Below are positions 41,702-61,089 of a DNA stretch of 64,000 nucleotides, in pieces (the first letter of the stretch is position 1; every line of letters begins with the position of its first letter). Both the position numbers and the translations under genes were made by a program. This stretch comes from Patescibacteria group bacterium. GTDB lineage: Bacteria > Patescibacteriota > Microgenomatia > Levybacterales > UBA12049. Below the pieces are notes generated by a model. It searched no databases. It saw only the letters and a program-made list of their open reading frames with translations, and was not told the DNA's origin. The stretch lies in the NCBI GenBank assembly GCA_035510555.1, contig DATKGX010000048.1, positions 12,148-76,147 on the forward strand, read 5' to 3'.

Positions 41702-41703
41702 AA

Positions 41704-43227: not shown

Positions 43228-43232
43228 AGGAC

Positions 43233-44977: not shown

Positions 44978-45405
44978 AAGTTTGCTGATTTTTCTGCTAA
45001 AACTTCTAAAATTCTGAGTAAGTCTAATTTGTCTTGCTTCGAAAGATAGGACAAGAGTTTTTTCATTTTACTAGCTCTTTGCTTTTTGACTTGTGTCAGC
45101 AATTTTTCGCCTTGTTTGGTCAAATTAATTTTAACGATTCTTCTGTCTTTAATATCATTTTCTCTTCTTACTAACTTTGCCGTAATTAATTTATCAACTA
45201 GCGCAGTTGCGGTTGGCATGGTAGTGGCAAAATGACTGGCAATATCTCCCATATGCATTCCCGCTTTTTTTTTAATGTACTCAAGCGCTTGACACTGCAG
45301 TATGGTTGGATGAGAATGCTCAAAACTTCCAGACACACCACCTTTAAAATTTCTGCCTAAGTTAAATATTGCTTCTAGAATCTGGTCATTTATTTCGTCT
45401 GCCAT
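44974..45405 (-). CDS. MarR family transcriptional regulator
   Basis: 143 aa winged-helix protein. First gene of the marR-hlyD-hlyD-MFS operon (emrRAB-like arrangement). Confidence 0.75.
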   Translation of the reverse strand: MADEINDQILEAIFNLGRNFKGGVSGSFEHSHPTILQCQALEYIKKKAGMHMGDIASHFATTMPTATALVDKLITAKLVRRENDIKDRRIVKINLTKQGEKLLTQVKKQRASKMKKLLSYLSKQDKLDLLRILEVLAEKSANL

Positions 45406-45484
45406 ATTATTAAATGGACTAATTGTTAGATAGTATAACTAATTTTGGGAGAAATGTCAAATGTTAGTTTTTGGGTTGTTCTGA

Positions 45485-45493
45485 TGATATAAT
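45485..45493 (+). promoter_or_regulatory. Extended -10 promoter (TGaTATAAT) for tRNA-Glu
   Basis: tgatataat at 45485-45493, 8-9 nt upstream of the tRNA 5' end. Confidence 0.45.
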
Positions 45494-45501
45494 AATAGTA
45501 C

Positions 45502-45575
45502 GCCGCCATCGTCTAGTGGCCTAGGACGTCAGATTCTCATTCTGAAGATCGCGGGTTCAACTCCCGCTGGCGGTA
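45502..45575 (+). tRNA. tRNA-Glu (anticodon CUC), 74 nt, CCA not encoded
   Basis: Hand fold. Acceptor GCCGCCA/TGGCGGT (G1-U72), D-stem GTCT/GGAC, anticodon stem TCAGA/TCTGA with loop TTCTCAT (C34 T35 C36), 5-nt variable loop, T-arm GCGGG-TTCAACT-CCCGC and discriminator A. Confidence 0.8.
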
Positions 45576-47089: not shown

Positions 47090-47092
47090 AAT

Positions 47093-47422
47093 CTACCCTC
47101 CGTTTAAAATTTCTTTTAAAGTCATCCCTTTGAACGTTTCTCTTTCATATTCATCAAGCCAACCGTCAATTAAGAATTCAAATTCCGTGACCATAATCTC
47201 TACTTGCTCGCTTGATAAAGCCTTGCCAACCTCTCCAAGAATTCCTTTTACCTGTACTACTTTTATTTCTTCGCTATGTTTTGGAAATATGGAATTTAGA
47301 GCATTTTCTATTGAAGTTTGGGGGGTAAGTTGGTTAGGCACATTGGGGTTTATTGATGTGGAACCTACCCTAGAAACGGTTTCTATTGAAGGAAAAAGTG
47401 ATAAAGTTAAAGCTTCTTGCAT
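47093..47422 (-). CDS. Small hypothetical protein (109 aa) co-transcribed upstream of the integrase, a candidate recombination directionality factor
   Basis: Acidic protein with no TM. Its stop is 3 nt from the integrase start. Confidence 0.5.
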   Translation of the reverse strand: MQEALTLSLFPSIETVSRVGSTSINPNVPNQLTPQTSIENALNSIFPKHSEEIKVVQVKGILGEVGKALSSEQVEIMVTEFEFLIDGWLDEYERETFKGMTLKEILNGG

Positions 47423-47433
47423 GTTAGTAAAAC

Positions 47434-47449
47434 TATCTCATTTGAGATA
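47434..47449. promoter_or_regulatory. Perfect inverted repeat TATCTCA-TT-TGAGATA (candidate operator) 12 nt upstream of the start of the integrase operon
   Basis: The half-site ACTATCTCA also occurs at 47461-47479 (other strand, abutting a TTGACA) and in the XRE gene promoter at about 59650. Confidence 0.45.
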
Positions 47450-47670
47450 ATTGTATATCCCGAACGAGATAGTTGTCAAGGGGTTATAGTATTCTTTTAA
47501 GTCACTTTTAGGCATGAAAATGAGCAGTCTTTTAATTTCCTCTAAGCATTGTTTAAAAGGGCAGCTTTCAGTTCCTCTCAGTGCTTGGAGGAAATTAAAA
47601 ACTATTCTTGAATAGATAAATCTATGCGTAATTTGATTTACAAGTAGACATATTCTATAATTCAGGCCTT

Positions 47671-48081
47671 ATGGGAGTAGAAGGCGGCAGTCAAGGATAC
47701 GGAGAAGAAGATGGTGGTGGAGATAATAGTCCAACAGCAACACACTATTTCCTAGAAATTGTTCAGGAGGTAGTTGCTTCTCTGGATTCTGACACAAAAT
47801 GGGATCAAGGTGTACATGAAGGAAATGCGCTGATTGCTGCGTATGGCTTGGTCAGAACTGTTATGCCTAGCGAATTACCTCAATTCGGGAGCGCGCTTAC
47901 GGACTTATCAACAAAACATCCAGAATCTCTCCTAGTGGTAACCGGAGCATATAAATTAATCAGGGAGGCATATTCTGTTGAGCAAGGACTTAGTTCGCGA
48001 GAAGTCAGGAGATTGTTAGGCTTACCTACCAAAGGAAGAATCTTTCCTACTCAAGCTGATAAATCAAATTCAACGAGATAA
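47671..48081 (+). CDS. Hypothetical protein (136 aa), Gly/Asp-rich N-terminus
   Basis: ORF preceded by TTGATT-N17-TATAAT with 9 nt between the -10 and the ATG (leaderless-type). Confidence 0.55.
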   Translation: MGVEGGSQGYGEEDGGGDNSPTATHYFLEIVQEVVASLDSDTKWDQGVHEGNALIAAYGLVRTVMPSELPQFGSALTDLSTKHPESLLVVTGAYKLIREAYSVEQGLSSREVRRLLGLPTKGRIFPTQADKSNSTR

Positions 48082-48095
48082 GTTTTATAGACCCA

Positions 48096-48124
48096 TTGAC
48101 TTCACTTAGCCTCAGTGCTACACT
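48096..48124 (+). promoter_or_regulatory. Promoter TTGACT-N17-TACACT upstream of the ATPase gene
   Basis: The spacer contains the TAGCCTCA motif (48107-48114). A 40-nt leader with hairpin GCCCTTTACGAGAGGGC (48147-48163) sequesters an SD-like GAGAGGG. Confidence 0.35.
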
Positions 48125-48164
48125 CTAGGCCACTTAGTAAACTCCTGCCCTTTACGAGAGGGCT

Positions 48165-50987: not shown

Positions 50988-51015
50988 TTGTCCTCGATGT
51001 TGAGGACAATATTTT
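50988..51015 (+). terminator. Intrinsic terminator hairpin TTGTCCTC-gatgtt-GAGGACAA followed by TATTTT
   Basis: 8-bp perfect stem and a U-rich tail directly after the ATPase stop codon. Confidence 0.6.
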
Positions 51016-51127
51016 AGGCAATTTGAGCATAAATTAAAGATAAATTGTGACACCTACCCTTACCAAATACGGAGTATATTATACGGTTGGGTATGGCATA
51101 AATACTAAACTTACAAAAAATAACTTA

Positions 51128-51922
51128 ATGACACAACTAAACCTAACAAACAAACAACAAGAAATATTAACACTAATCCCTAGATTTAGATTCTTAGACA
51201 GAACCCATATCCAAACATTCTTAAAACATAAAGACAAGAAACGAATCAACAGCTGGTTAAAAAACTTAACAGAAAAAGAATACATACAAAGAATATATGA
51301 CAATCATATTGTGGGAAAGAATAGAAGAGCTGCTATCTTTTCTTTAAATAACAACGGAGTAAGATTTGTAAAAGCTTTAGGAATATATGACAGATCTTTT
51401 ATTCATAAACTGTATTGGGACAAAGACAGGTCTGATGCGTTTATTGAGCGCTGTCTATTTATTGCCACAATCTGTTGTGAGCTTGAAAAGAAAGAAAGCA
51501 ATATGCTGCATTACGAATACGCAACTGAAAGCGATTTCTGTGATCCAACTAACCCCTTTCATTTTTTAAAAGTTTCTAAATTACCAATCGATTTATACTT
51601 TAAAAAAAGAAAGGGAAGATTAACAAAGCATTTTCTACTGACATTATTTGAGCAAACTCTTCCGCGTTACAGACTACGAAAAAGGATTAGGGATTATCTA
51701 GAATTTTACTATAGTAATGACTGGAAGAATCTTACAAATACTAAATTTCCCACGCTATTATTTGTGTTTCAAACAAAAGAGCGCATGATTTATGCAAAGA
51801 GGTATATCAAAACGCTGTTTGATGATGATAGCCCTGATGATTTATCAATCAATCTCGCGGTAGCTAGCGACGTACAAACCGAAGGTGGCGTTACTGGAGA
51901 GATTTGGGAAGAGGTTGAATAA
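51128..51922 (+). CDS. Replication-relaxation (Replic_Relax, PF13814-like) family protein candidate
   Basis: ORF track starts at 51047. MTQLNLTNKQQEILTLIPRFRFLDRTHIQTFL matches the winged-helix N-terminus of replication-relaxation proteins from Gram-positive plasmids/ICEs. Confidence 0.45.
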   Translation: MTQLNLTNKQQEILTLIPRFRFLDRTHIQTFLKHKDKKRINSWLKNLTEKEYIQRIYDNHIVGKNRRAAIFSLNNNGVRFVKALGIYDRSFIHKLYWDKDRSDAFIERCLFIATICCELEKKESNMLHYEYATESDFCDPTNPFHFLKVSKLPIDLYFKKRKGRLTKHFLLTLFEQTLPRYRLRKRIRDYLEFYYSNDWKNLTNTKFPTLLFVFQTKERMIYAKRYIKTLFDDDSPDDLSINLAVASDVQTEGGVTGEIWEEVE

Positions 51923-51923
51923 A

Positions 51924-51957
51924 AATCCTACCGCTTCGGTTAGAAAGCGGTAGGATT
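51924..51957. terminator. Bidirectional terminator hairpin (13-bp perfect stem AATCCTACCGCTT / AAGCGGTAGGATT, loop cggttaga) between convergent genes
   Basis: Lies between the 51922 stop (+) and the 51964 stop (-). Confidence 0.65.
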
Positions 51958-51963
51958 AAAGCC

Positions 51964-52272
51964 CTACTCTTGTGGTTCGTGTAGCTTTTTAATTTCTGAA
52001 AGCCTGATAGGCTTAAAATACATGTCCCTTTCAATACTTAAATCCATCGGACCCTTAAGGTTTTGCAGTTCGGAAAGACTAAAATATCCTAACTCTGGAT
52101 AGTCTCCTGCTACGTAACCGAAAAAAGAATCTTTTCCGTCAAATTCTATGCCGTACCATTTCCAGCTTGTCCAAACAGCAAAGAATTTACAAACAACCAT
52201 CGGATCTTTCTCGTTTTCTTGAGAATAGAGTGCCGGCAATGCTTTTCTTAGTTCTTCTGTTATTAGTTTCAT
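51964..52272 (-). CDS. DUF2958-like protein (small protein common on conjugative plasmids)
   Basis: 102 aa. ...ALPALYSQENEKDPMVVCKFF...WKWYGIEFDG...FGYV.G...ELGYFSLSEL. Has a strong SD (AGAGGGGGTGA) 5 nt upstream, unlike its neighbours. Confidence 0.45.
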   Translation of the reverse strand: MKLITEELRKALPALYSQENEKDPMVVCKFFAVWTSWKWYGIEFDGKDSFFGYVAGDYPELGYFSLSELQNLKGPMDLSIERDMYFKPIRLSEIKKLHEPQE

Positions 52273-52304
52273 ATTTCACCCCCTCTCTTTTTAGAATTTG
52301 TTTT

Positions 52305-52400
52305 TAGGAAGCAAACCTGCTTCCTATACCAGAGACGAAATATGCGGGGTGAAGATTACAAGAGCGAAGCAAAGACTTCGTTTATATACTCTTGTAATCT
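52305..52400. repeat. Cluster of inverted repeats: a candidate oriT or structured RNA
   Basis: IR1 TAGGAAGCA-aacc-TGCTTCCTA (52305-52326). IR2 has a 12-bp stem AGATTACAAGAG (52353-52364) / CTCTTGTAATCT (52389-52400) enclosing the nested hairpin CGAAG-caaaga-CTTCG (52365-52380). Confidence 0.4.
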
Positions 52401-52436
52401 GAGGGGTGCAACCCTTAGAAACACTAAATGTAAAAC

Positions 52437-52466
52437 TTGAAACTAAATTTATTGTTAAACTATAAT
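52437..52466 (+). promoter_or_regulatory. Promoter TTGAAA-N18-TATAAT, 6 nt upstream of the kinase ATG (leaderless)
   Basis: TATAAT at 52461-52466, then gagtaa, then ATG at 52473. Confidence 0.5.
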
Positions 52467-52472
52467 GAGTAA

Positions 52473-52982
52473 ATGAATAAACCAATATTATATATTTTAA
52501 GCGGTATGTCTTTTGCTGGAAAATCAGTATTAGCGAGAGAAATTGCTAAAACAAAATCTATTCCATATATTGATCCCGATGAGGTTTCTCGAGAAAGAGG
52601 ACTTGGACTAAATGGTGAATTTATTCCAGAAGAGATTTGGAAAGACATACATAAGGAAGCGGAACAGAGAGCCATAGAAATTTTAAAACAAGGAAAAAGT
52701 TTGGTTTATGATACAACTGCATTAATTAAAAAGGATCGTGATTATTTAAGAAATTTAGCTAATGAAAATGGAGCTGAACCATTAGTTATAATTGTAAACA
52801 TTTCTAGAGAAGACGCTTTTAAGAGATGGCAGGAAAATAATACAACCAATGAAAGATATGCAGTTCATATTAATGATTTTAATATGTGCGCTGATGGTTT
52901 TCAATTTCCCAAAGATGACGAGAAATTCATAGTCTATCAAGCTGGTCAAAATATTACTGAATGGCTAAGGAAAATAAATTAA
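52473..52982 (+). CDS. Small P-loop kinase, chloramphenicol-phosphotransferase-like (CPT/AAA_33 family)
   Basis: 169 aa. P-loop ILSGMSFAGKSVL resembles the CPT P-loop ILNGGSSAGKS. Leaderless. Confidence 0.45.
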   Translation: MNKPILYILSGMSFAGKSVLAREIAKTKSIPYIDPDEVSRERGLGLNGEFIPEEIWKDIHKEAEQRAIEILKQGKSLVYDTTALIKKDRDYLRNLANENGAEPLVIIVNISREDAFKRWQENNTTNERYAVHINDFNMCADGFQFPKDDEKFIVYQAGQNITEWLRKIN

Positions 52983-53081
52983 ATCTACGAAGCGGAAACC
53001 ATTGCGCCCTTCAGAAGAAGTAGTACTTGATCAATCGTGAAAGTACCAAAAGAGGGGCAAGACCCCTAAGAAGCTTTCTGA

Positions 53082-53087
53082 TATAAT
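53082..53087 (+). promoter_or_regulatory. Extended -10 (cTGaTATAAT), 6 nt upstream of ATG 53094 (leaderless)
   Basis: ctgatataat-caactc-ATG. Same arrangement before the other cassettes. Confidence 0.5.
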
Positions 53088-53093
53088 CAACTC

Positions 53094-53807
53094 ATGGAAG
53101 AAGAAATAAAAATCCCCCTTGGAGATAATAAGTTTGCTTATGGCACTCTAAGAGGAAACCTTGATCAACCCCTTATAATATTTGCTCACGGATTTACAGG
53201 AGATAAGAATCATCACATTTTTTTCAATGGTGCTAGGTTTTTTGAGAAACATGGAATTTCTTCATTTAGATTTAATTTCTATGGCGAGGAAGAAGATTCT
53301 AGGCAGTTAAATGATTGTAGCATCTCAAATCATGTCTCCGACTTAGATACAATAGTGTCATATTTTAGAGATAAAGCCAAAAACATTATTGTTGTTGGAC
53401 ATAGTTTTAGCGGAATAATAATACTTTCATCAAAAAAACAGCAGTTTGATAAAGCTATACTTTGGGATCCATCTTCTGATACTAAGAGCTGGTTAGTTAA
53501 AGACGCTAAATATATAAAAGAGCTTGGTCTATATTATTTCGATGACTGGGGAGTGTCATATACAATTGGAAAGCAGATGTATCAGGAATGCGTCGATTTT
53601 AACCCCGATCACCTATCCTCAAAATTTACAAAACCACTCAAAATAATTGTCGCAGGCAATGGAATACTTAAAGACGGTGGCCGAAAATATTTTGAACAAG
53701 CAAATCAGCCTAAAGAATTTGCTGTTATTGAGGGTGCGAGCCACAACTTTAATGAAGATGGGGTGGAAGAAAAGTTATTTCAAGAAACCCTTAATTGGAT
53801 AAAATAA
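53094..53807 (+). CDS. Alpha/beta hydrolase fold protein
   Basis: 237 aa. HGFTGDKNHH followed by the nucleophile elbow VVGHSFSG. Confidence 0.7.
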   Translation: MEEEIKIPLGDNKFAYGTLRGNLDQPLIIFAHGFTGDKNHHIFFNGARFFEKHGISSFRFNFYGEEEDSRQLNDCSISNHVSDLDTIVSYFRDKAKNIIVVGHSFSGIIILSSKKQQFDKAILWDPSSDTKSWLVKDAKYIKELGLYYFDDWGVSYTIGKQMYQECVDFNPDHLSSKFTKPLKIIVAGNGILKDGGRKYFEQANQPKEFAVIEGASHNFNEDGVEEKLFQETLNWIK

Positions 53808-53848
53808 GTTCTAATATCGTCTATCCCTCGGAGCAAATTAGCCTCAAA
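53808..53848 (+). repeat. Cassette-junction element J1 (GTTCTAATATCGTCTATCCCTCGGAGCAAATTAGCCTCAAA)
   Basis: Begins 1 nt after the stop codon. Related copies at 54534-54577, 55105-55121 (partial), 56001-56040 and 56573-56620. TAGCCTCAAAA alone occurs at 57142-57152. Confidence 0.6.
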
Positions 53849-53893
53849 TAGCGTACATTTTACCTGCCCATACTCTACTCAACCATTATCCTA

Positions 53894-53908
53894 TTGACAA
53901 TTTGTCAA
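53894..53908. promoter_or_regulatory. Perfect palindrome TTGACAA-T-TTGTCAA overlapping the -35 hexamer of the 53939 gene (candidate operator)
   Basis: 7-1-7 inverted repeat. TTGACA-N17-GATACT promoter, then about 10 nt to the ATG. Confidence 0.45.
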
Positions 53909-53938
53909 TGATTAAGGATACTATAGACAGAGAAAAAT

Positions 53939-54532
53939 ATGACAGAACCAATAGACGCATCAAGGGGAGTTCCTGCTCCAGTAGAACCAACGGGTGAACA
54001 ACCTCAAATTCCTCAAGAGGATAGATATATATTTAATCCAGCAGAGTTTGACGAAAAAGCCGCAGCTGAGCTAAGAAGACATGAGGAATGGCTTAGGACT
54101 GAGGGCTGGAGAGAAGACAGAGCCAGGGAAACTCTTGATAGACAAAGACAAGATTTGGCTGAGAATAGAACTTGGTGTGAGGCTTATTCTGGGAAAGTGA
54201 AAAGAGAATGGGGCTGGGGGGAAGTGAATGAAAATGCTGGCTACCCATCTTGGGCTCACATAATTACAGATATTGAAGACCAAGGAGTACCTCTAACAGC
54301 TGTGGAGATTGATGCTGCTATAGACTATCCGCTATGGCATGTACCTGTATCTCTCGGAGAAAACAGGCCACTAACTCAAGAGCAACTAGACAGGTTAGCA
54401 ACTAAAAAGAACATGGTACGAGCAAAAACTTTTGAAAAAGACATTGCAGATGCCCAGTTGCGTATGGGTGTAGAACCTCAAGTGGTACAGCACGCTGTAG
54501 GTTTAAATCAAGCTGCTGGCCGAGTTGTATAA
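53939..54532 (+). CDS. Hypothetical protein (197 aa), acidic and Arg/Glu-rich
   Basis: GC-richer codon usage than its neighbours. No motif recognised. Confidence 0.55.
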   Translation: MTEPIDASRGVPAPVEPTGEQPQIPQEDRYIFNPAEFDEKAAAELRRHEEWLRTEGWREDRARETLDRQRQDLAENRTWCEAYSGKVKREWGWGEVNENAGYPSWAHIITDIEDQGVPLTAVEIDAAIDYPLWHVPVSLGENRPLTQEQLDRLATKKNMVRAKTFEKDIADAQLRMGVEPQVVQHAVGLNQAAGRVV

Positions 54533-54533
54533 C

Positions 54534-54577
54534 TAGCCTCTAACATCCTCTATCCCTCGGAGTTACGTAGCCTCAAT
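54534..54577 (+). repeat. Cassette-junction element J2
   Basis: ctagccTCTAACATCCTCTATCCCTCGGAGttacgTAGCCTCAatt, followed by tgTGaTATAAT at 54583-54588. Confidence 0.55.
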
Positions 54578-54582
54578 TGTGA

Positions 54583-54588
54583 TATAAT
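54583..54588 (+). promoter_or_regulatory. Extended -10, 9 nt upstream of ATG 54598
   Basis: tgtgatataat-cccctaaat-ATG. Confidence 0.45.
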
Positions 54589-54597
54589 CCCCTAAAT

Positions 54598-55116
54598 ATG
54601 CCAGAAGGAGATAATTCACAAAGACAAGAAGTAGCAAGAAATGCAGAATTCGCCGGAATAATGGCAGAGGCGATAAAAAGACATGTTCAATATCCAGATA
54701 AATCAGCAACTGAACATGAATATCTGCTAGGATCTCTCGAAATTCCTGTAACTTTTTACTATCAAGGTGCTTCAAGATGTGCAATAAAAATAGACTGGAA
54801 TGACGATTGGGATGTAACTTATCACGTTGATCCTGAAGGTGTAATTAAAACAGGCTTTATTGACCCAAGAGAAACAACCGGTGACCCTTGCACATTCTGG
54901 GAAAATGATCCAGCGGAAATTGAAGACCACAAGCGTTTTGGGCGTAGATTTCTTCCTGCGCCTGCTGCCAATTCAATAGAGAAAAGTTTAATTAGTCAAT
55001 TAGCACAACATCCAATGCAAGGACAAAAAATCCTGTTGGATATTGCGGAGCATGCAGCGTGGAAAAATTATGAGATATGCCCCCAATTCCTCTCTGAACC
55101 AGAGGGAGCAAATTAG
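54598..55116 (+). CDS. Hypothetical protein (172 aa)
   Basis: Leaderless ORF. Its 3' end contains the GGAGCAAATTAGCCTCA junction core. Confidence 0.55.
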   Translation: MPEGDNSQRQEVARNAEFAGIMAEAIKRHVQYPDKSATEHEYLLGSLEIPVTFYYQGASRCAIKIDWNDDWDVTYHVDPEGVIKTGFIDPRETTGDPCTFWENDPAEIEDHKRFGRRFLPAPAANSIEKSLISQLAQHPMQGQKILLDIAEHAAWKNYEICPQFLSEPEGAN

Positions 55117-55136
55117 CCTCAGAAAGCAGCTTCTGC

Positions 55137-55142
55137 TATAAT
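55137..55142 (+). promoter_or_regulatory. Extended -10 (cTGcTATAAT), 7 nt upstream of ATG 55150
   Basis: TAGCCT lies 17 nt upstream at the -35 position. Confidence 0.45.
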
Positions 55143-55149
55143 CAGTCCA

Positions 55150-55590
55150 ATGACTTATTCAACTCACAAATTAAAACAAGAAGATCTTAGTAGTTTTGTT
55201 GATTTATGGAATCAAGATCCTGAAGCTTTAGCAACAAGTAAACGTGTGATGACATTAGATTTAGCACAAGATGGGTTTAAAGAGAATTATTTTGATTACT
55301 ATTTTGGTCTGTACGAAAATAATAAACTAATTGGCTTTATTCTTATAAAGAATATCGATGATAATATTTGGTTAAAACATATGTTAATTGATAATGGCGA
55401 AAGAGGGAAAGGGCTTGGAAAAATGTTTTTATCGGAAGTTCTCAAAATTGTTAACAATAGAATATTAACGGAAGTTGTTGAGGACAATGATAGGGCAAAA
55501 AAGTTTTATATAGATAATGGTTTTAGGGAAATTCGTTTTGATCAAGAAAGTAGGGATTATATTTTGGAATATATCCCATCACTGATATAA
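55150..55590 (+). CDS. GNAT family N-acetyltransferase
   Basis: 146 aa. Motif A ...IDNGERGKGLGKMFLSEVL. Confidence 0.75.
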   Translation: MTYSTHKLKQEDLSSFVDLWNQDPEALATSKRVMTLDLAQDGFKENYFDYYFGLYENNKLIGFILIKNIDDNIWLKHMLIDNGERGKGLGKMFLSEVLKIVNNRILTEVVEDNDRAKKFYIDNGFREIRFDQESRDYILEYIPSLI

Positions 55591-55591
55591 T
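55586..55591 (+). promoter_or_regulatory. Extended -10 (cTGaTATAAT) inside the 3' end of the GNAT gene, 6 nt upstream of ATG 55598
   Basis: ctgatataat-caactt-ATG. Confidence 0.45.
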
Positions 55592-55597
55592 CAACTT

Positions 55598-55999
55598 ATG
55601 AATAAAAAAGTATTAGAAATGTTTGCCAAAAGCACATTTAGCGTCTCTGAACAGAAATACATTTACGCAAAAGTTAAAAGTGTACCTACGTTATCTATTC
55701 ATTTTTTTGTTTCTCAAGACAAGGATGAAATAACTGTAGTAACTGAAGAGAATAACATTTCCTCCTTAGATTTAATCGAAAAGAATGATAATCTCTGGAG
55801 ATTAGTATCTCTTAATTTAGAAACGTCTTTTATGGCAGGGACATTAGCGATAATTAATTCTGCTTGTGCAGAAAAAGGATTGAATAACTTAATTATTTCA
55901 ACTTATTCGAAGGACTACTTAATCATAAAAGATTTACAAGCAAATCAAATAAGAGAAGTTTTGACCACTCTTGGATTTAATGAAAAATCCCTAAAATAG
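55598..55999 (+). CDS. ACT-domain-like small protein (ACT_7-like)
   Basis: 133 aa. ...KYIYAKVKSVP...FFVSQDKDEITVVTEE...STYSKDYLIIK pattern. Confidence 0.45.
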   Translation: MNKKVLEMFAKSTFSVSEQKYIYAKVKSVPTLSIHFFVSQDKDEITVVTEENNISSLDLIEKNDNLWRLVSLNLETSFMAGTLAIINSACAEKGLNNLIISTYSKDYLIIKDLQANQIREVLTTLGFNEKSLK

Positions 56000-56000
56000 A

Positions 56001-56040
56001 TTCTAATGTCCTCTATTCATCGGAGCTGCATAGTCTCAAA
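56001..56040 (+). repeat. Cassette-junction element J5 (TTCTAATGTCCTCTATTCATCGGAGCTGCATAGTCTCAAA)
   Basis: Starts 1 nt after the stop. Followed by cTGaTATAAT at 56051-56056 and ATG at 56063. Confidence 0.6.
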
Positions 56041-56050
56041 ATATTTCTGA

Positions 56051-56056
56051 TATAAT
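56051..56056 (+). promoter_or_regulatory. Extended -10, 6 nt upstream of ATG 56063
   Basis: ctgatataat-ctacct-ATG. Confidence 0.45.
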
Positions 56057-56062
56057 CTACCT

Positions 56063-56569
56063 ATGGAAATTGTTGATGTTGTTGATAAAGATTTAAACAT
56101 CCTATGCCAAATTTCAAAACAAGAAGCCCACGAAAAAGGATTACTGCATAAATGTGTTATTGCTGAGGTTACCAACTCCAAAGGCGAAATGATGCTTATT
56201 AAACCATATAGTCATAAGCAAGATGCCGGACAATATGTTTCGCCTGTTGGGGGACATGTATCTGCAGGAGAATCAGACGAAGATGCCTTGAAAAGAGAAG
56301 TTATGGAAGAAATTGGAATGAAAGATTTTACATACAAGCTCAAGGGAAAAGGAATTTTTAACAGATTCGTTCTTAATCGTCATGAGAATCACTATTTCCT
56401 TCTGTATGAAATATTTACAGACGAAGCTCCTCAGCTAGGAGACGAAGCTGAAACATATAAGTGGTTTACTAAAGAAGAGCTAAAAAAAGAATTAAAGGAA
56501 AATACTAAGGATTTTGGTGACGCATATATCTTTATTCTTAACAATTTTTACCCTGAATTATTAAAATAG
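56063..56569 (+). CDS. NUDIX hydrolase
   Basis: 168 aa. Nudix box GGHVSAGESDEDALKREVMEEIGM (GX5EX7REUXEEXGU). Confidence 0.8.
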   Translation: MEIVDVVDKDLNILCQISKQEAHEKGLLHKCVIAEVTNSKGEMMLIKPYSHKQDAGQYVSPVGGHVSAGESDEDALKREVMEEIGMKDFTYKLKGKGIFNRFVLNRHENHYFLLYEIFTDEAPQLGDEAETYKWFTKEELKKELKENTKDFGDAYIFILNNFYPELLK

Positions 56570-56572
56570 CAA

Positions 56573-56620
56573 GTTCTAATGTCCTCTATTCTTCGGAGCT
56601 CAATATTTTATCCTCAAAAA
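56573..56620 (+). repeat. Cassette-junction element J6 (GTTCTAATGTCCTCTATTCTTCGGAGCTC...ATCCTCAAAAA)
   Basis: Followed by tgTGaTATAAT at 56629-56634. The ORF-track start at 56579 is the ATG embedded in this repeat. Confidence 0.6.
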
Positions 56621-56641
56621 CCTTGTGATATAATCGAATTT

Positions 56642-57124
56642 ATGAATGAGAGATTTACTCCTCAAGAGCTTTATGATTTTATAGATAGAGCAGGCAAGGC
56701 AACCTATGCAGGAGGTGGAAAATATGAAGAGCATCCAGAGCGACCTGGATTTTTTGAATTAGTCTACGATAAAGAATTGCCTTGGTATTACAGGGATAGC
56801 TATGCAGGACATTCTAGGTCTGGAGGACAAGAGGTTGTTAGATTGAATGATGAATTAATTTGGTGGTCAGGATATGGTGGAGGCATGGTTGAAGGAAGAG
56901 AAGACATGTCCAATCAAACTTTTGATTTTCTTAAGAAGGCTCTATCCCAAGACGATGAAGGATTTAAATCTCTAAGAGGTCCTCATGAATTTGCGGATGG
57001 AGATTGGAAATATGCCTATACCCAAGATGGAGATATAACAGATTTTTATGGATATGAAGAGATTTCCTACAAAGGAGAAAAAGTGTTCTGGCACAGAGCG
57101 GTTGGCGGAATATTAAAGAAATAA
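56642..57124 (+). CDS. Hypothetical protein (about 160 aa)
   Basis: The start is re-placed at MNERFTPQ (56642), 7 nt downstream of the TATAAT. The 21-codon extension from 56579 lies inside the conserved junction repeat. Confidence 0.55.
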   Translation: MNERFTPQELYDFIDRAGKATYAGGGKYEEHPERPGFFELVYDKELPWYYRDSYAGHSRSGGQEVVRLNDELIWWSGYGGGMVEGREDMSNQTFDFLKKALSQDDEGFKSLRGPHEFADGDWKYAYTQDGDITDFYGYEEISYKGEKVFWHRAVGGILKK

Positions 57125-57168
57125 CGCCCATCCCACGAAAATAGCCTCAAAAACTAACTGCATAAAAA

Positions 57169-57531
57169 TTATTTTGAATTATACCATTGATGAAATTCTG
57201 TACATTTACCGTTTTCATCTAGGATCACTTTATAAATTCCATCTAATTCTGCCTTTTCCCCTGAAGATAATCTCGTAAAAGTTGCGTGCCAATGAGCAAT
57301 ACCAATGTTATTCTCTAAACTTAATATTTCGTAAGTTACTTTTATATCATCCTGATCTAAAACAGTTTGCCACTCTTGTAATAATTTCTCTTTAGTAGTT
57401 ATCAGGTCATCAAAAGGAGTTTCATACCATAAAAACTTTTCAGCAACCAAATCCAAAACTCCATTAGGATTTTTTGGCTCCCAAACATTTATAAGTTTTT
57501 TCAACCAATCTTCAAATTGTTCTTTTGTCAT
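57169..57531 (-). CDS. NTF2-like/SnoaL-like small protein
   Basis: 120 aa with an alpha+beta-cone-like pattern (W...W..H.AT...G). Last cargo gene, on the opposite strand. Confidence 0.4.
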   Translation of the reverse strand: MTKEQFEDWLKKLINVWEPKNPNGVLDLVAEKFLWYETPFDDLITTKEKLLQEWQTVLDQDDIKVTYEILSLENNIGIAHWHATFTRLSSGEKAELDGIYKVILDENGKCTEFHQWYNSK

Positions 57532-57741
57532 TAAAAATATTATATCAAATTACCCAGCCTTGGCGGCACAGATATTCAAATCTTCGCTAAGTAGTTATTT
57601 TTGCAGTTTACAAGAATTTTCTTCTACTTATATTTAAGTAAACATAGATGTAAGGAGCTTGATGTTAATTAAAATAATGGCGTTTATAGATTGTCTAAAC
57701 TATTAACCCAGTAAGGGGAAATCGAAAGAACTATTATTAAG

Positions 57742-58560
57742 TCACATTGCAACGTTAGTGTTTGATCCTACTTTATACACAAGAACTCTAGTGAAATTTT
57801 GTCCTGATGTGGGTCTTCTTTTTATGGGTTCGGGATTTCTTGGATCCGTCGTTTTCATGTAGTCTAGCGCACTTGCTTCTTTCCCTTCCGGCCAATCTCT
57901 GGCTTCGACAATCCCATATTTATCATTTTCTGCCCTATACCCAGTATAACTTCTAACTATATTCGTACCATCGCCCCATCTACCACCAACAGCCGGCATT
58001 AATTCTGCTTTTGTCTTATCAATCCCAAGCACATCATATGTTGACTGTATCGCTTCTTCCCTACCAACATAGTCATCCGGTATATCAACGAATACGCCAT
58101 AAGCTCCGTGTTTCTGGGTGTTTACTTCTGCTACCGCATCTAATAATGCGTCTTTAGCGTCTCTTGATTCTGGGTGTCTAGCAGCGCTAAGAGCTCTTCG
58201 TCTCTCTATCAATGTGCGCTCCGCTACAAGTAATTCTCTTGCGGCTTCAGTAACAGCAGGTATTCTTCCTAAAATCTCTTCAGCTTTAGCATCTTGTCCT
58301 AGTCTTTTTAATTCACTTGCCGCTCTATGATAGCTACTCTTAACCTCAGACGCTAGTTGCTGCTCTTCGGGATCTAGTTCCTCTGAATGAGCTTCTTGTA
58401 GTTCCGCATTCTCTGCTACTTCAGCAGATGGAACGGGCGAATATGCTCCTGCTGTTTCGGGATGTTGTTGCGGTTCAGCTGAAACGGGAGCTGCTTGTGC
58501 TTCCGCGGCTACTTGAGATGTTGCTCCGGCTGGCGGTTCTCCTCCGAATGGATTAGTCAT
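57742..58560 (-). CDS. Hypothetical protein, Ala/Glu/Pro-rich N-terminal half
   Basis: ORF track gives 57742..58596. Start re-placed at MTNPFGG (58560), which is 6 nt downstream of a CATAAT -10 (leaderless). Markedly GC-richer than its surroundings. Confidence 0.5.
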   Translation of the reverse strand: MTNPFGGEPPAGATSQVAAEAQAAPVSAEPQQHPETAGAYSPVPSAEVAENAELQEAHSEELDPEEQQLASEVKSSYHRAASELKRLGQDAKAEEILGRIPAVTEAARELLVAERTLIERRRALSAARHPESRDAKDALLDAVAEVNTQKHGAYGVFVDIPDDYVGREEAIQSTYDVLGIDKTKAELMPAVGGRWGDGTNIVRSYTGYRAENDKYGIVEARDWPEGKEASALDYMKTTDPRNPEPIKRRPTSGQNFTRVLVYKVGSNTNVAM

Positions 58561-58566
58561 AAGCTT

Positions 58567-58596
58567 ATTATGAATGAAATTTTTAGATATTGTCAA
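58567..58596 (-). promoter_or_regulatory. Promoter TTGACA-N18-CATAAT for the 58560 gene, flanked by the inverted repeat TTAGATAT/ATATCTAA
   Basis: -10 = rc(58567-58572) and -35 = rc(58591-58596). The AGCTATTGACAAT motif is shared with the TA-operon promoter. Confidence 0.45.
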
Positions 58597-58703
58597 TAGC
58601 TATATCTAAAATAATAAAGGAGCATTAATCCATTTGTAAAATCCATTGCCAATCAATAACCGCAGGCGTATAATTTTGCTAAAGAATAAATTAAATCATA
58701 TTT

Positions 58704-59522
58704 ATGAGTAAAAATTATTTTTCATTTATAGATGAAAGCGGTAATTCCTCCCAAGAAAGATATTTTGGATTGGGACTTTTGGTGATAGATGATGAAATTG
58801 GTGACTTCTATGATTCAATGAAATCTTTCTATGACAAAGCAAAAGATGTTGCTCGTGCTCAGAAAACAGCAAGAATTGCAGACCTGACAAAAAAAGAAGA
58901 ATACGAGCAGATTGCGGAAATAGCAAAAAGCACAAGAAGCTTTGAATTAAAATTTAAATATATTAATTCAACAAATAATACTATTTACAGTTCCTTGTTG
59001 GATAATTATTTTAAGTTTCCGAATGTAAGATTTTGCGCTCTTGTTATTGATAGACAAAAACAAAATACAAAATCTAGCTGGGCACCTGTTATTAACCCGT
59101 GGGAAACTTATATCTTGCAAGCATCCATGTTAATCGCAAACAATATTAAAAATATTTCTCCATGCAATCTGTGCATCTTGGCAGATGATTTAACTAGACC
59201 TTCTGATATTAAGAAGTCGTTTGAGCGTTCACTGGCGGATGCAATTAAATATAGATTAACAAAAAATAAAATGCCAGATACTGTATTTGGAGTAAGTAGA
59301 CTTGAATCGCATTCGTCTTTGTTATTACAAGTCGTTGATATTTTACTTGGTGCAGTAATGTATGATTTCAAAAAATCAGCGGGGTTAATTTCAGATAAAC
59401 TTTCTGAGAAACAAGAGATAGTTGTTGATAACTTAAAACAAAAATTGGGGACTACTAGTTTAGCTCAAAATAAAACTTATCATAAGCCAAGCTATTTTTC
59501 TGTGTGGGAATTAAGTAAATAA
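58704..59522 (+). CDS. DUF3800 family protein
   Basis: 272 aa. N-terminal FIDESGNS and C-terminal ...HSSLLLQVVDILLGAV motifs characteristic of DUF3800. Confidence 0.55.
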   Translation: MSKNYFSFIDESGNSSQERYFGLGLLVIDDEIGDFYDSMKSFYDKAKDVARAQKTARIADLTKKEEYEQIAEIAKSTRSFELKFKYINSTNNTIYSSLLDNYFKFPNVRFCALVIDRQKQNTKSSWAPVINPWETYILQASMLIANNIKNISPCNLCILADDLTRPSDIKKSFERSLADAIKYRLTKNKMPDTVFGVSRLESHSSLLLQVVDILLGAVMYDFKKSAGLISDKLSEKQEIVVDNLKQKLGTTSLAQNKTYHKPSYFSVWELSK

Positions 59523-59688
59523 AAATGCGGGTCATGGACAAGAAACCCACACCCGCATTAGTGATTATATCGTAACCGATTCTAAAATACAAAGTCAAGT
59601 GAATAAAGTATTTTGACATAGAAAGTTGTAGTTGAAAATCCTCGTGAAACTATCTCAAATTTACTCTTCGTGTTATAATACACTCGAT

Positions 59689-59898
59689 ATGGATAGTCCT
59701 GAAAACAAGAAAACGCTTGGAGATAAATTCAGAATTGCCAGAGAGGAACAAAACCTTACGCAGTTACAGGTGGCAAAAAAAGCCGGCATTAGCGTTAATT
59801 ACTACGCAAGAGTTGAAAGAGGCGATCCAGATGCAAGGTGGAGCGTTATAAATAGTATTGCTAAGGCATTAGGAATAAACGTAAAACTTCCTATTTAA
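59689..59898 (+). CDS. XRE-family helix-turn-helix transcriptional regulator
   Basis: ORF track starts at 59632. The start is preferred at MDSPENKK (59689), 9 nt downstream of TATAAT 59674-59679. HTH LTQLQVAKKAGISVNYYARVERG. Confidence 0.7.
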   Translation: MDSPENKKTLGDKFRIAREEQNLTQLQVAKKAGISVNYYARVERGDPDARWSVINSIAKALGINVKLPI

Positions 59899-59930
59899 AA
59901 TAACTGTTAAAGTTCTTTCCCTTTAGTTAA

Positions 59931-60083
59931 TTTTTCTAGTATAATATGCTTCGGAGTAACCAGTGTCTTTTGATAAAAATATATCGTTTTCAGCTTCCTT
60001 TTGCCCTTGATACGAAAGCACAATTTTCTGTATCCAAGGCAGGAAGTGTTCAAAAGAAAATGCACTGGCGGTACTCAGTGAGA
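59931..60083. repeat. About 145-bp right-arm repeat, copy A (ends in the att core)
   Basis: About 75% identical to 60941-61085. The last roughly 45 bp (TATCCAAGGCAGGAAGTGTTCAAAAGAAAATGCACTGGCGGTAC) are near-identical. Confidence 0.6.
60065..60083. repeat. attR core: second copy of the 19-bp direct repeat CTGGCGGTACTCAGTGAGA
   Basis: Exact match to 45567-45585. Confidence 0.75.
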
Positions 60084-60318
60084 TAACGCTCAAAAAAAGC
60101 TATTTTTAGCCTCGGGATTGTGTTCAATTTCGAAGTTTTCAGAAAAATTTTTTTGAAGCTAATTTTCCGCAGACGCGATTGAGAGTTGAACACTTTCAGG
60201 GCTGTTAAAATCCAACGCCTCTGAGCATGTCGGTATAGAACCATTCTATCGTTATAGCGGTATCTCGTCCCTGATACTAAATTAGTTAGGCTAATGAGGA
60301 ATATTTCTTTTATTTGAA

Positions 60319-60570
60319 TTATTCATAGACTGTTGCTCTATGTCCCGCAGTAAGAATGTCTACTACTTTATCTTTTTTATTAACCTTATAAATTATTCTA
60401 TACACACCTACTCGAAAAGAAAATTTGCCTGTAAGTTCCATGGTTAAGGGCTTACCTAAAAAAGGTTCTTCTTTTATTTCCGCGAATGCCAAAATGATTG
60501 CTTTTTGATGAGGATGTGATATTTTTTTAATTTCGCTTTCTGCTCTTGAAGAAATTCGTAATTTATACAT
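60319..60570 (-). CDS. Type II toxin, RelE/ParE family
   Basis: 83 aa. C-terminal ...YRIIYKVNKKDKVVDILTAGHRATVYE. 8-nt overlap with the upstream antitoxin gene. Confidence 0.75.
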   Translation of the reverse strand: MYKLRISSRAESEIKKISHPHQKAIILAFAEIKEEPFLGKPLTMELTGKFSFRVGVYRIIYKVNKKDKVVDILTAGHRATVYE

Positions 60571-60838
60571 GAAGATTTAACTCTTTTTTGAGTTGTTCAA
60601 ATGTTACAAACCGATCATTTTTTATATCATCTTCTCCTTCTCTAATTGCATACAATAATCCTGAATCAGCCATAATTTCATTCGTTTCTTTCCAAGACTG
60701 GTATTCGGCAGCAGAAATAAGAACTGCTGCAGGTAATCCGTTTACAGTAATAATATATTCTTCTAGTTTCTTATTTGCATTTTCAACCAGAGTAGTTAAA
60801 TCTTCTCTTGCTTTTGTGATAGGTAATGTGTGTGTCAT
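60563..60838 (-). CDS. Type II antitoxin, Phd/YefM family
   Basis: 91 aa. ...PITKAREDLTTLVE...ITVNGLPAAVLISAAEYQSWKETNEI. Promoter TTGACA-N17-TAATAT with 6 nt to the ATG. Confidence 0.75.
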   Translation of the reverse strand: MTHTLPITKAREDLTTLVENANKKLEEYIITVNGLPAAVLISAAEYQSWKETNEIMADSGLLYAIREGEDDIKNDRFVTFEQLKKELNLHV

Positions 60839-60940
60839 AAGTAAATATTACAGAATTATGTACAAATTGTCAATAGCTAAAAAAATGTTTAATGCGTAGG
60901 ACTTGAGTTGTGCAACAAAAATCTATCAGTTTATTTTCTT

Positions 60941-61085
60941 GGTATAATAAGTTTCGGAGTACTTAATATTTTCTGGCGAAAATATATCATTTTTAATATT
61001 CCTTTGCTCTTGATATGAAATTATGATTTTATATATCCAAGGCAGAAAGTGTTCAAAAGAAAATGCACTAGCGGTACAAAGTCCC
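60941..61085. repeat. About 145-bp right-arm repeat, copy B (ends in the degenerate att-like CACTAGCGGTACAAAGTCCC)
   Basis: See copy A. Begins with TGgTATAAT like copy A. Confidence 0.55.
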
Positions 61086-61089
61086 ATAG

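Follow-up and report, generated by a model that had tools for sequence, protein, structure and literature searches.

The locus considered here raises the question of what two similar segments, referred to as arms, represent, which lie on either side of a toxin-antitoxin module at the outer end of a tRNA-associated island in a Patescibacteria genome. In the window, i.e., the whole stretch of 64,000 nucleotides that was analysed, an initial annotation had described both segments as a duplicated right arm of about 145 bp and about 75% identity around a RelE/Phd module, one copy ending in the att core and the other in a decayed core, and had read them as the scar of an earlier integration, with possible transcription of the arms as small RNAs. 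The duplication itself stands: a repeat search aligned positions 59925-60079 and 60928-61082 without gaps over 155 nt at 77% identity and a spacing of 1003, in agreement with MAFFT. Over the slightly longer stretches 59923-60083 and 60926-61086, 122 of 161 positions (76%) are identical, and in the core-proximal part 40 of 47 (85%). Also the near identity reported for the final 45 bp was recovered: of the 45 nt bordering the core on its left, just two differ between the arms, and neither difference alters the amino acid encoded on the minus strand. The starts originally given for the arms had to be moved, however, to a pair of aligned stop codons at 59923-25 (TAA) and 60926-28 (TGA), where the similarity begins. 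It is far above chance, and low complexity is not its source: instead of a mere effect of AT-rich sequence, which had been named as a possible refutation, a tblastn search of the window with the reconstructed integrase tail (see below) matched arm 2 at E = 1.9e-17. A further DNA-level constraint on the 45 bp beside the core was considered and rejected, as synonymous differences (2 of 13 identical-residue codons, compared with 5 of 19 elsewhere in the tail) show no excess.

The island is indeed bounded by core repeats at tRNA-Glu. An exact-match search found the 19-bp core in just two places, with identity extending to neither side, and the core behind arm 2 has decayed as described (Table 1).

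Table 1 Features of the locus, with positions in the window
Feature	Position	Strand	Basis
tRNA-Glu(CTC), integration target	45502..45576	+	ARAGORN; last 10 nt inside att core
Large serine recombinase gene, integrated (truncated) form, 510 aa	45557..47089	-	Translation; Pfam; PDB sequence matches
attL core, CTGGCGGTACTCAGTGAGA, copy 1 of exact 19-bp direct repeat	45567..45585		Exact-match search; covers tRNA-Glu(CTC) 3' end
Island 1, about 14.5 kb, integrative mobilisable/conjugative-type element	45586..60064		Pfam; absent from syntenic relative L025
109-aa ORF directly upstream of int	47093..47422	-	ORF list
Arm 1, detached int 3' end, 46 codons AFSFEHFLPWIQKIVLSYQGQKEAENDIFLSKDTGYSEAYYTRKIN + TAA	59923..60064	-	Translations, codon table, tblastn; in frame with int through core
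attR core, copy 2 of exact 19-bp direct repeat	60065..60083		Exact-match search
ParE/RelE-family toxin, ParE_toxin, 83 aa	60319..60570	-	PF05016, E 4.2e-9
Phd/YefM antitoxin (PhdYeFM), 91 aa	60563..60838	-	PF02604, E 1.5e-13; 8-nt overlap with toxin gene
Promoter-like site TTGACA-17-TAATAT upstream of phd	60845..60873	-	Promoter scan, 10/12 matches; consensus match only
Arm 2, relic tail of second family integrase (AFSFEHFLPWIYKIIISYQEQRNIKNDIFSPENIKYSETYYTKKIN + TGA)	60926..61067	-	Translation, tblastn, tail HMM E 1.2e-28
Degenerate core CTAGCGGTACAAAGTCCCA	61068..61086		Alignments; 13/19 identical to active core, counted from sequences

The arms are the last 46 codons of serine integrase genes, read on the minus strand. 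At the far end of the island, the 510-aa integrase ORF passes the attL core and enters the antisense strand of the tRNA gene, where it ends with ...LSLSTASGS*. Based on Pfam matches (Resolvase PF00239, E 1.3e-30, residues 13-157; Recombinase PF07508, 8e-9; Zn_ribbon_recom PF13408, 2e-6) and PDB sequence matches (TP901-1 integrase and resolvase catalytic domains, Sin), this enzyme is classified as a large serine recombinase (LSR), with YLRVSTEEQ as the region of the Ser-nucleophile motif. The integrase ORF and the ORF of arm 1 have the codons S-L-S-T-A-S in common across the core. Because both read the core in the same frame, the excised circle would encode an integrase of 554 aa with the predicted end ...STAS-AFSFEHFLPWIQKI...YYTRKIN, and arm 1 matches residues 502-554 of this reconstruction at 98% in tblastn. 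Since the attachment site is located inside the integrase's own reading frame, integration into tRNA-Glu severs the tail of the gene. Detachment affects residues 509-554 only, and the 510 aa that are retained contain each of the three Pfam domains. In an AlphaFold model of the reconstructed protein, the core-encoded residues 501-510 display pLDDT values below 50, consistent with a linker, and residues 512-526 form a helix with pLDDT block averages of about 68-70. The model further contains long helices at 353-400 and 406-427, corresponding to a coiled coil inserted in the zinc-ribbon domain.

Very probably, the locus thus holds a 14.5-kb element in tRNA-Glu(CTC) with attP inside its own LSR gene, arm 1 being the detached tail of that gene and arm 2 the tail of an older relative. 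[quoted passage not shown] Upon insertion at the tRNA 3' end by the element's own LSR, crossover would take place within the 19-bp core, leaving the gene body at attL with the end ...STAS-GS* inside the antisense tRNA, while the tail would be moved 14.5 kb off to attR. Arm 2 is what remains of the integrase of another, older family member once present at the same tRNA; the body of that integrase is gone and the core decayed, while the ParE/Phd addiction module survives with a promoter-like site of its own. The predicted circle junction reads ...AAGTGTTCAAAAGAAAATGCA-CTGGCGGTACTCAGTGAGA-GCCCCTTATTGTCAAACATTCG..., and the predicted empty site ...GGGTTCAACTCCCG-CTGGCGGTACTCAGTGAGA-TAACGCTCAAAAAAAGC.... 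When metagenome contigs were scanned for attP/attB junctions by means of the 19-mer core, only three matches were obtained, all unrelated, and no read or contig of the excised circle or of the empty attB of island 1 was found; a scan of viral contigs with the tail gave no match. LSR att sites usually comprise about 40-50 bp, have no arm sites and are imperfectly symmetrical about a 2-bp crossover. With its 19 identical bp, the core is in keeping with such a short site. In the window as well as in a second island described below (L014), however, the reconstructed attP and attB displayed no better LSR-type dyad symmetry than shuffled sequence; the best dyad in the reconstructed attP of the window is centred on the core with 13 of 26 matches, and 143 of 300 shuffles scored as well.

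A genome scan with the tail yielded 11 Patescibacteria loci with tails ending in ...YY(T/K/I)KK(I/V)N*, and all loci related to the integrase or its tail belong to Patescibacteria MAGs. Between arms 1 and 2, pS is 0.41 and pN 0.19; across the 11 tails, synonymous differences are near saturation (mean pS 0.70), while replacements are not (mean pN 0.29). Judged by this substitution pattern, the tails are evidently under protein-coding constraint. Most tails that still read to the YY(T/K/I)KK(I/V)N* stop are preceded by a short Ala/Pro/Glu- or Gly-rich stretch (SAPEE, GAPEE, CAPEG, SAPER, SGEDAR, GGEDAR), which may be similar in kind to the endings of Int ORFs in antisense tRNA.

An arm of the same type was also found at another tRNA-Glu. 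The independent island L014 comprises a tail, 8.7 kb of cargo, an Int of 61% identity and tRNA-Glu(TTC) with an 11-bp direct repeat, and its tail joins its Int in frame to give ...FGDP-NALLFEPFLPWIQKIMLAY...YYIKKIN*. Clean in-frame reconstructions of split genes are confined to these two islands. A third one was rejected for L011, where the nearby tail and the resident Int have different cores, and no partner tail was present within 10 kb of Int in L020, L022, L024 and L027, while L030 offers almost no sequence upstream of its int for such a search. Among the 120 closest integrase homologues (57-88% identity), 82 have a length of 500-530 aa, and 116 match a profile of the conserved body end, beyond which these 116 stop after a median of 14 residues. 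Wherever DNA of the locus is available, int either runs at its 3' end into an antisense tRNA gene or has a tRNA 3' end within about 20 nt (Glu-CTC, Glu-TTC, Leu-GAG, Leu-TAG or Leu-TAA), the exception being L022 with no tRNA detected there. An unsplit, full-length form exists as well: P0072 is a 546-aa Int with tail and no tRNA nearby, its tail being divergent (tail HMM E about 0.006-0.01). P0105 gave no match to the tail model. Additionally, the fragments P0147, P0177, P0182 and P0137 are each recognised by the HMM of the Int C-terminus (E 6e-9 to 2e-4) as well as by that of the tail (E 3e-11 to 5e-24). These comparisons show the architecture to be family-wide.

With arm 1 assigned to island 1, the origin of arm 2 has to be considered. 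The claim that a RelE/ParE-Phd pair lies between the arms is borne out by the PF05016 and PF02604 matches, and the pair is intact. As in type II toxin-antitoxin systems, the antitoxin gene is located upstream, the genes overlap and both family domains are present. A syntenic relative (L025; backbone identity 72%) carries tRNA-Glu and is devoid of island 1. There, a ParE-Phd-tail module with 88% DNA identity to the window lies next to tRNA-Glu, which identifies arm 2 as the remnant of a further member of the family. Together with the degenerate core distal to the intact island, this independent occurrence of the module marks arm 2 as the tail left behind by a related element that was older and has decayed. 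Hence, the earlier suggestion of a scar of a previous element, with its integrase lost and its toxin-antitoxin pair retained, agrees with the situation in the relative. Left of ParE, the relative has a T-arm fragment, GGGTTCAACTCCC (2 of 500 shuffles as good), while no significant tRNA fragment occurs in 60084-60290 of the window (490 of 500 shuffles score equally well). A tblastn search of 60084-60320 for an int remnant gave no match at E <= 10, and a 64-aa ORF within this interval matches neither Pfam nor PHROG. The direct repeat TAGCGGTA....GTCCC (60255-71 and 61069-85) was considered as the boundaries of a mini-element and dropped, its chance expectation being about 0.1 and a tRNA fragment being absent from the interval just named.

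For the origin of arm 2 alone, a different history deserves attention: instead of a plain attR scar, in which tail and core are followed by chromosome, it could mark the inner junction of a tandem array that once existed, or an attP fragment that never recombined (tail, core, then the 3' end of a second int gene), with erosion afterwards. The relic in L025 is of exactly this type. Its tail, which has suffered a 1-nt deletion, is joined to DNA clearly homologous to the int 3' end of island 1, with about 23 int codons right of the core (Int C-terminal HMM E 2e-4), and P0147, P0177 and P0182 are arranged alike. In the window, the tblastn alignment of arm 2 reaches back as far as residue 490 of Int (EIYQNL versus PIYQSI) in the right register; this candidate int remnant right of the core, however, is not significant by the Int C-terminal HMM (E 3.9), and the similarity between the window and L025 drops abruptly at the core. 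Such a history could well apply, though we would stop short of calling it probable.

The two arms would not be integrase tails at all if they were paralogues of an independent small protein gene (about 55-65 aa) whose position close to att sites is incidental. The open frame of arm 2 does continue to an ATG at 61123, giving a 65-aa ORF, and 46 clusters of ORFs with the tail motif, 32-105 aa in length, are present in protein databases. In an exhaustive HMM search, however, the tail was found elsewhere exclusively in such orphan ORFs, apart from one spurious 449-aa exception. In most of them, the conserved block is located at the C-terminal end or a few residues away, while their N-terminal parts are not conserved and mutually unrelated, some being Int 3' fragments, others unrelated read-through, and some resembling the endings of Int ORFs in antisense tRNA. 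Arm 1 has only a TTG as start, compared with the ATG of arm 2, and by eye no Shine-Dalgarno-like sequence precedes either. Moreover, tail and Int are joined in frame in both reconstructed islands, independently of each other, as well as in unsplit sequences, so that a separate small protein gene is quite unlikely.

Similarly unlikely is the proposal that each arm is a small-RNA gene, or else a non-coding att arm, transcribed on the plus strand from a TATAAT promoter of its own. TATAAT does occur at 59941-46 and 60944-49, in arm 2 with a TGn extended -10, and the fold of arm 1 is far stronger than that of shuffled sequence (z -3.8). These hexamers, however, are the antisense of the conserved Tyr-Tyr-(Thr) codons, and a consensus scan gave neither a -35 partner nor a plus-strand promoter at the arm starts. 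The conservation is explained by the minus-strand frame with its aligned stop codons and a dN well below dS. No Rfam match was obtained at E <= 1, and arm 2 folds poorly (z -1.7 and -0.4). A conserved RNA or DNA structure was likewise rejected: notwithstanding z values of -3.8 and -4.8 for arm 1, its structure is not conserved over 12 tails (58.5% of cells paired compared with 57.3% in shuffles), nor is there covariation, the score being reached by 131 of 500 shuffles. Furthermore, serine recombinases are not known to use arm-type sites. The arms described earlier as RNA genes are, hence, coding sequence. One feature that speaks for a plus-strand signal is the use of TAT for the Tyr codons of the YY motif in 22 of 22 cases (11 tails), which preserves the antisense TATAAT and would be expected by chance at about 0.01, given the TAT:TAC ratio of 17:4 in the Int gene; a dual-use antisense -10 box might thus conceivably reside in the tail.

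A local segmental duplication of arm 1 without any second element would suit two copies in direct orientation merely 1 kb apart, but is extremely improbable, since L025 carries the arm 2-linked ParE-Phd-tail module without island 1 or arm 1 and the 23% divergence of the arms with its purifying-selection pattern implies that they diverged while both were functional.

Compared with known systems, the integrase of island 1 shares with canonical LSRs (phiC31, Bxb1, TP901-1, A118) the domain order Resolvase, Recombinase and Zn ribbon with coiled-coil insert, and its short att core is compatible with the central-dinucleotide crossover of these enzymes. Canonical LSRs, however, typically target protein-coding or intergenic sites and have attP outside int, in contrast to the tRNA 3' ends and the attP inside the ORF observed here. 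A large LSR survey makes no mention of tRNA genes among the targets of LSRs. Mycobacteriophages (BPs, Brujita, cluster P), as described by Broussard et al. in 2013, reportedly carry attP in a coding region, such that integration alters the C-terminus of a regulatory protein and the protein form reports the integration state. In that integration-dependent immunity, the split gene is a repressor and the recombinase a tyrosine integrase, whereas here the serine integrase gene itself is split. By comparison with these phages, a role of the tail as degradation tag might be hypothesized.

[quoted passage not shown] As in that phage, the att core of island 1 is part of the int frame and the SLSTAS codons are shared at attL and attR; L014 behaves likewise. 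Integration of Mx8 converts IntP into the recombinant prophage form IntX with a new 3' end and intact body (PMC6070905). Unlike here, Mx8 Int is a tyrosine recombinase and Mx8 a phage, while island 1 resides in a Patescibacteria host and resembles an IME/ICE; moreover, the piece detached here is a strongly conserved 46-aa module common to elements with different tRNA targets. SSV-type "suicidal" integrases (SSV1, pTN3, pT26-2) also contain the site within the integrase ORF, so that the gene is partitioned on tRNA integration, and relic halves accumulate and can be reassorted; they have been reviewed as exclusively archaeal and are tyrosine recombinases (PF16795) (PMC7253208; PMC8371274). The likeness extends to the recombination site in the own ORF, the partition at tRNA genes and the relic pieces. 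The SSV-type split, however, destroys catalytic integrity and leaves two inactive pseudogenes, whereas here only a C-terminal tail beyond all recognised domains is removed. Besides, those enzymes are archaeal tyrosine recombinases of the Phage_integr_3 fold, in contrast to the bacterial serine recombinase of island 1, for which Pfam gave no PF16795 match. Tandem or decayed tRNA islands, finally, resemble the locus in that a newer island adjoins the tRNA, an older relic lies outward with a degenerate att repeat, and a toxin-antitoxin pair is kept; the marker of the relic is an integrase coding fragment here, not a displaced tRNA fragment.

The integrase of island 1, a serine recombinase of bacteria, is, hence, the equivalent of Mx8 IntP/IntX on the one hand and of the archaeal "suicidal" integrases on the other. 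Self-splitting integrases have so far been presented as a peculiarity of archaeal tyrosine recombinases, with Mx8 as an isolated bacterial case of a C-terminus changed by integration. The present locus and its relatives display the same logic in another enzyme superfamily and another domain of life, aimed at tRNA genes. Dozens of small CPR ORFs annotated as hypothetical proteins are thereby explained as detached integrase tails, and tail plus tRNA-end repeat provide a simple marker for delimiting integrative elements in CPR genomes, the mobile elements of which are poorly charted.

The tail may work only in the episomal form, in which case the C-terminus of the integrase would signal whether the element is integrated. 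If the case of Mx8 IntP/IntX is a guide, attenuated or otherwise altered activity would be expected of the resident enzyme that has lost its tail. More tentatively still, a wider picture may be sketched of an LSR family widespread in Patescibacteria with attP in the 3' end of its own gene and many tRNA targets, in which a sequence-tolerant, core-encoded linker allows target switching, an episome-only tail module makes a two-form switch, and orphan tails are re-used. If this doubtful picture held, integration would flip the integrase between two protein forms as a built-in switch of state, directionality or stability, and orphan tails taken up by incoming elements would lead to hybrid integrases and captured flanking cargo such as ParE/Phd. 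Possible control of LSR activity, directionality or stability by the tail would also bear on LSR engineering.

Regarding the remaining content of island 1, its cargo comprises, according to Pfam, a TraG/TrwB-like ATPase, a Replic_Relax protein, DUF2958, an AAA_33 kinase, GNAT, DUF3800 and HTH. LSR excision requires a separate recombination directionality factor. The 109-aa ORF directly upstream of int, which has no Pfam or PHROG match, is a candidate for an accessory or directionality factor, and an ORF of 103-121 aa occupies the same position in every related locus examined (L002, L020, L022, L024, L027).

The repeated segments flanking the ParE/Phd pair were recovered by a repeat search of the window as a gapless match of 155 nt with 77% identity at a spacing of 1003 (arm 1, 59925-60079; arm 2, 60928-61082), and a MAFFT alignment gave the identical register, which bears out the duplicated arm described in the initial annotation. 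The same holds for the decayed core past the second arm (CTAGCGGTACAAAGTCCCA, 13/19 identical to the intact core) and for the toxin-antitoxin pair between the arms, both partners of which were assigned by Pfam. While a duplicated arm marking a relic element is ordinary by itself, the interest lies in the arm's identity as the detached tail of an integrase. On the minus strand, both arms read as open frames that stop in matching register (TAA at 59923-25, TGA at 60926-28), and the similarity between them ends at the aligned stop codons. The window contains a single tRNA gene, tRNA-Glu(CTC) at 45502-45576, and exactly two copies of the 19-bp core CTGGCGGTACTCAGTGAGA (45567-45585 and 60065-60083), whose flanks are identical on neither side; the former copy comprises the tRNA-Glu 3' end plus 9 nt. 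These copies, attL and attR, bound a 14.5-kb insertion, island 1. The adjoining 510-aa ORF carries Resolvase, Recombinase and Zn_ribbon_recom domains (Pfam) as well as the motif YLRVSTEEQ, and the catalytic domain of this integrase (Int) resembles its TP901-1 integrase and Sin counterparts (PDB sequence matches). The int ORF crosses the attL core and stops within the antisense tRNA (...KGLSLSTAS-GS*), and arm 1 crosses the attR core with int's frame kept (...SLSTAS-AFSFEHFLPWIQKIVLSYQGQKEAENDIFLSKDTGYSEAYYTRKIN*). Joining the element ends in silico, as by excision, yields one 554-aa ORF; hence, the integrase gene contains attP and loses its last 46 codons upon integration. With the reconstructed Int as tblastn query, arm 1 (98% identity) and arm 2 (58%, E 1.9e-17) were retrieved and no further match in the window. 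The int gene is shown to be split at the att core, with all recognised domains staying in the retained part.

Coordinates of features in the window and in public loci of relatives (L0xx)
Feature	Location	Strand	Remark
Large serine recombinase (LSR) ORF, 510 aa	45557-47089	minus	adjoins tRNA-Glu
ORF upstream of int	47093-47422	minus	
940-aa TraG/TrwB-like ATPase, Replic_Relax (nicking-initiator-like) protein, DUF2958	48165-52272		island 1
AAA_33/zeta-like kinase, GNAT, DUF3800, HTH regulators			island 1 cargo
ParE-family toxin	60319-60570	minus	Pfam; between arms
Phd/YefM antitoxin	60563-60838	minus	Pfam; between arms
Promoter-like site TTGACA-17-TAATAT	upstream of ParE/Phd pair		consensus scan
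ORF upstream of int	L002 2436-2771; L020 9660-9998; L022 9676-10017; L024 9639-10004; L027 9699-10010		
tRNA-Glu(CTC) at int 3' end	L002		
tRNA-Glu(TTC) at int 3' end	L014		
tRNA-Leu(GAG) at int 3' end	L011, L020, L027		
tRNA-Leu(TAG) at int 3' end	L013, L030		
tRNA-Leu(TAA) at int 3' end	L024		

The detached part is likewise shown to be a conserved peptide under purifying selection, with pS 0.41 and pN 0.19 between the arms, and mean pS 0.70 (near saturation) and mean pN 0.29 for 11 tails (window plus nine public loci). A tail-motif scan of one genome per species gave 11 loci, nine of them titled as Patescibacteria lineages (Roizman-, Shapiro-, Gottesmanbacteria, Parcubacteria, Patescibacteria group) or unclassified and two labelled Gammaproteobacteria and Limnocylindrales; the hosts are probably Patescibacteria. 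Most tails conform to (F/I)E(H/P)FLPWI(Q/Y)KI...YY(T/K/I)KK(I/V)N*, an ending missing in the two weakest matches (L015 and L016), and in most of those still reaching that stop, short Ala/Pro/Glu- or Gly-rich stretches (SAPEE, GAPEE, CAPEG, SAPER, SGEDAR, GGEDAR) precede the tail. A search for the arm at other tRNA-linked islands was successful in L014, where the whole split architecture recurs independently: tail (3676-3816), 61% identical Int (10836-12332), tRNA-Glu(TTC) and an 11-bp direct repeat TGGTGACCCTA, with an in-frame reconstruction of ...FGDP-NALLFEPFLPWIQKIMLAY...YYIKKIN*. When 1.8 billion representative proteins were searched exhaustively with the profile, the tail otherwise occurred only in orphan ORFs of 32-105 aa, mostly at the C-terminal end or a few residues from it, and in one spurious 449-aa match. 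An unsplit Int of 546 aa with a contiguous divergent tail (P0072) lies on a contig without tRNA, and four short ORFs (P0147, P0177, P0182, P0137) have the last 20-25 Int-body residues running directly into the tail, all four being significant for both profiles.

More than 2,000 homologues of the reconstructed Int were found, the best 120 of which share 57-88% identity; 116 of these 120 match the conserved body-end profile with the stop at a median of 14 residues past it, and many end in, e.g., ...GAGERT or ...GIRTRD, read from sequence as putative translated antisense tRNA. In all loci with fetched DNA, int runs at its 3' end into an antisense tRNA gene or stops at most about 20 nt from the tRNA 3' end; L022, where no tRNA was detected, is the sole exception. 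L020 (9279-11533) and L021 (3785-6039) each have a minimal, approximately 2.3-kb element (HTH, 112-aa ORF, int) between tRNA-Asn and tRNA-Leu(GAG), with no tail detectable within 10 kb. In L016 (363-2123), a distantly related LSR ORF (23% identity) spans the whole antisense tRNA-Lys, followed directly by a tail remnant ...PDASLFEHFLPWIQKIMFAL, this single 587-aa open frame being a fusion of two att-linked relics.

In the AlphaFold model of the reconstructed Int, the core-encoded residues 501-510 form a low-confidence linker and residues 512-526 are helical (pLDDT block averages about 68-70). Such a sequence-tolerant linker would allow relatives to fit different tRNA ends. Integration would strip the tail of promoter and start codon; hence, selection on the tail would have to act in the episomal form, implying an enzyme in two state-dependent versions. 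Candidate roles of the tail are those of a putative degron or directionality element. In integration-dependent immunity, attP sits in the repressor gene. In Myxococcus phage Mx8, as in Int here, attP lies within the integrase ORF, and the integrated int acquires a different 3' end and an altered specificity (PMC6070905); by this analogy, the resident enzyme is most likely altered or attenuated. Neither serine recombinases with attP inside their ORF nor LSRs of CPR bacteria that target tRNA genes were found described in the part of the literature covered, so that an earlier description is possible; a large LSR survey does not mention tRNA.

The remnant second element supposed initially is supported by L025, the P0137 locus, whose backbone aligns syntenically with window positions 36665-45576 including tRNA-Glu at about 72% identity. 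Island 1 is absent there, and ParE-Phd-tail is present with 88% identity (window 60278-61077); therefore, the module linked to arm 2 is independent of island 1 and the remains of another element. This relic (L025 reverse complement 9307-10215 vs window 60278-61086) thus keeps 88% identity in genomes with backbones only about 72% identical. To the right of the L025 core, DNA clearly homologous to the island 1 int 3' end follows; such a tail-core-int junction would arise within a tandem array or where an attP has stayed unrecombined. Arm 2 itself may be a simple attR scar or what erosion has left of a junction of this kind, its extension (MEIYQNLSQKSTMGLC vs ISPIYQSIRMFDNKGLSLS) being in correct register with a non-significant match. 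The L025 tail is a pseudogene because of a 1-nt deletion, and its mosaic composition (first 70 nt 94% identical to arm 1, 75% to arm 2) hints that tails may have been exchanged between elements. Just left of ParE in L025 (about 9285-9297 of the reverse complement), 13 nt of a tRNA T-arm, GGGTTCAACTCCC, are identical to the window tRNA-Glu (equal score in only 2/500 shuffles) and may be a remnant of an older copy of the tRNA. A 34-nt repeat with 76% identity (58569-58602 and 60846-60879, shared ...TTGTCAATAGCTA) lies upstream of a 284-aa minus-strand ORF within island 1 and, in its second copy, covers the promoter-like region of the relic phd-parE operon.

The TATAAT-type promoter formerly assigned to each arm corresponds to the conserved Tyr-Tyr codons read in antisense, and a consensus scan of the + strand detected no promoter where the arms begin. 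These codons may still double as an antisense -10 box, since TAT TAT encodes the Tyr-Tyr of the C-terminal YY(T/K/I)KK in each of the 11 tails (22/22 codons, against an expectation of about 0.01 at the codon usage of the Int gene itself; window 59938-59949 and 60941-60952; tails of L006-L014). TAT TAT keeps a perfect antisense TATAAT, while other synonymous sites are near saturation. The suggestion that the arms are small RNAs is disfavoured by the coding constraint (pS > pN), the lack of Rfam families at E <= 1 and non-conserved structure, the unusually strong folding of arm 1 on both strands (z -3.8 and -4.8) being absent from arm 2 and without pairing or covariation across 12 tails. A long-range inverted repeat in arm 1 (59953-60083; CCAGTGTCTTTTGA / TCAAAAGA...CACTGG) takes in part of the att core and is not conserved in arm 2 or other tails.

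The cargo of island 1 suits an integrative mobilisable or conjugative element rather than a prophage, and its ATPase region makes up a conjugation/mobilisation-type module carried by a member of the Patescibacteria. Of the core genes, L022 shares the ATPase and DUF2958, and L027 the ATPase, Replic_Relax and DUF2958. Every family locus examined has an ORF of 103-121 aa immediately before int, in many cases overlapping it; neither Pfam nor PHROG families match this ORF, a candidate directionality or accessory factor. In the related island of L027 (3272-5147), a reverse transcriptase (RVT_1) lies beside a bAvd-like gene, a pair that resembles a diversity-generating retroelement.
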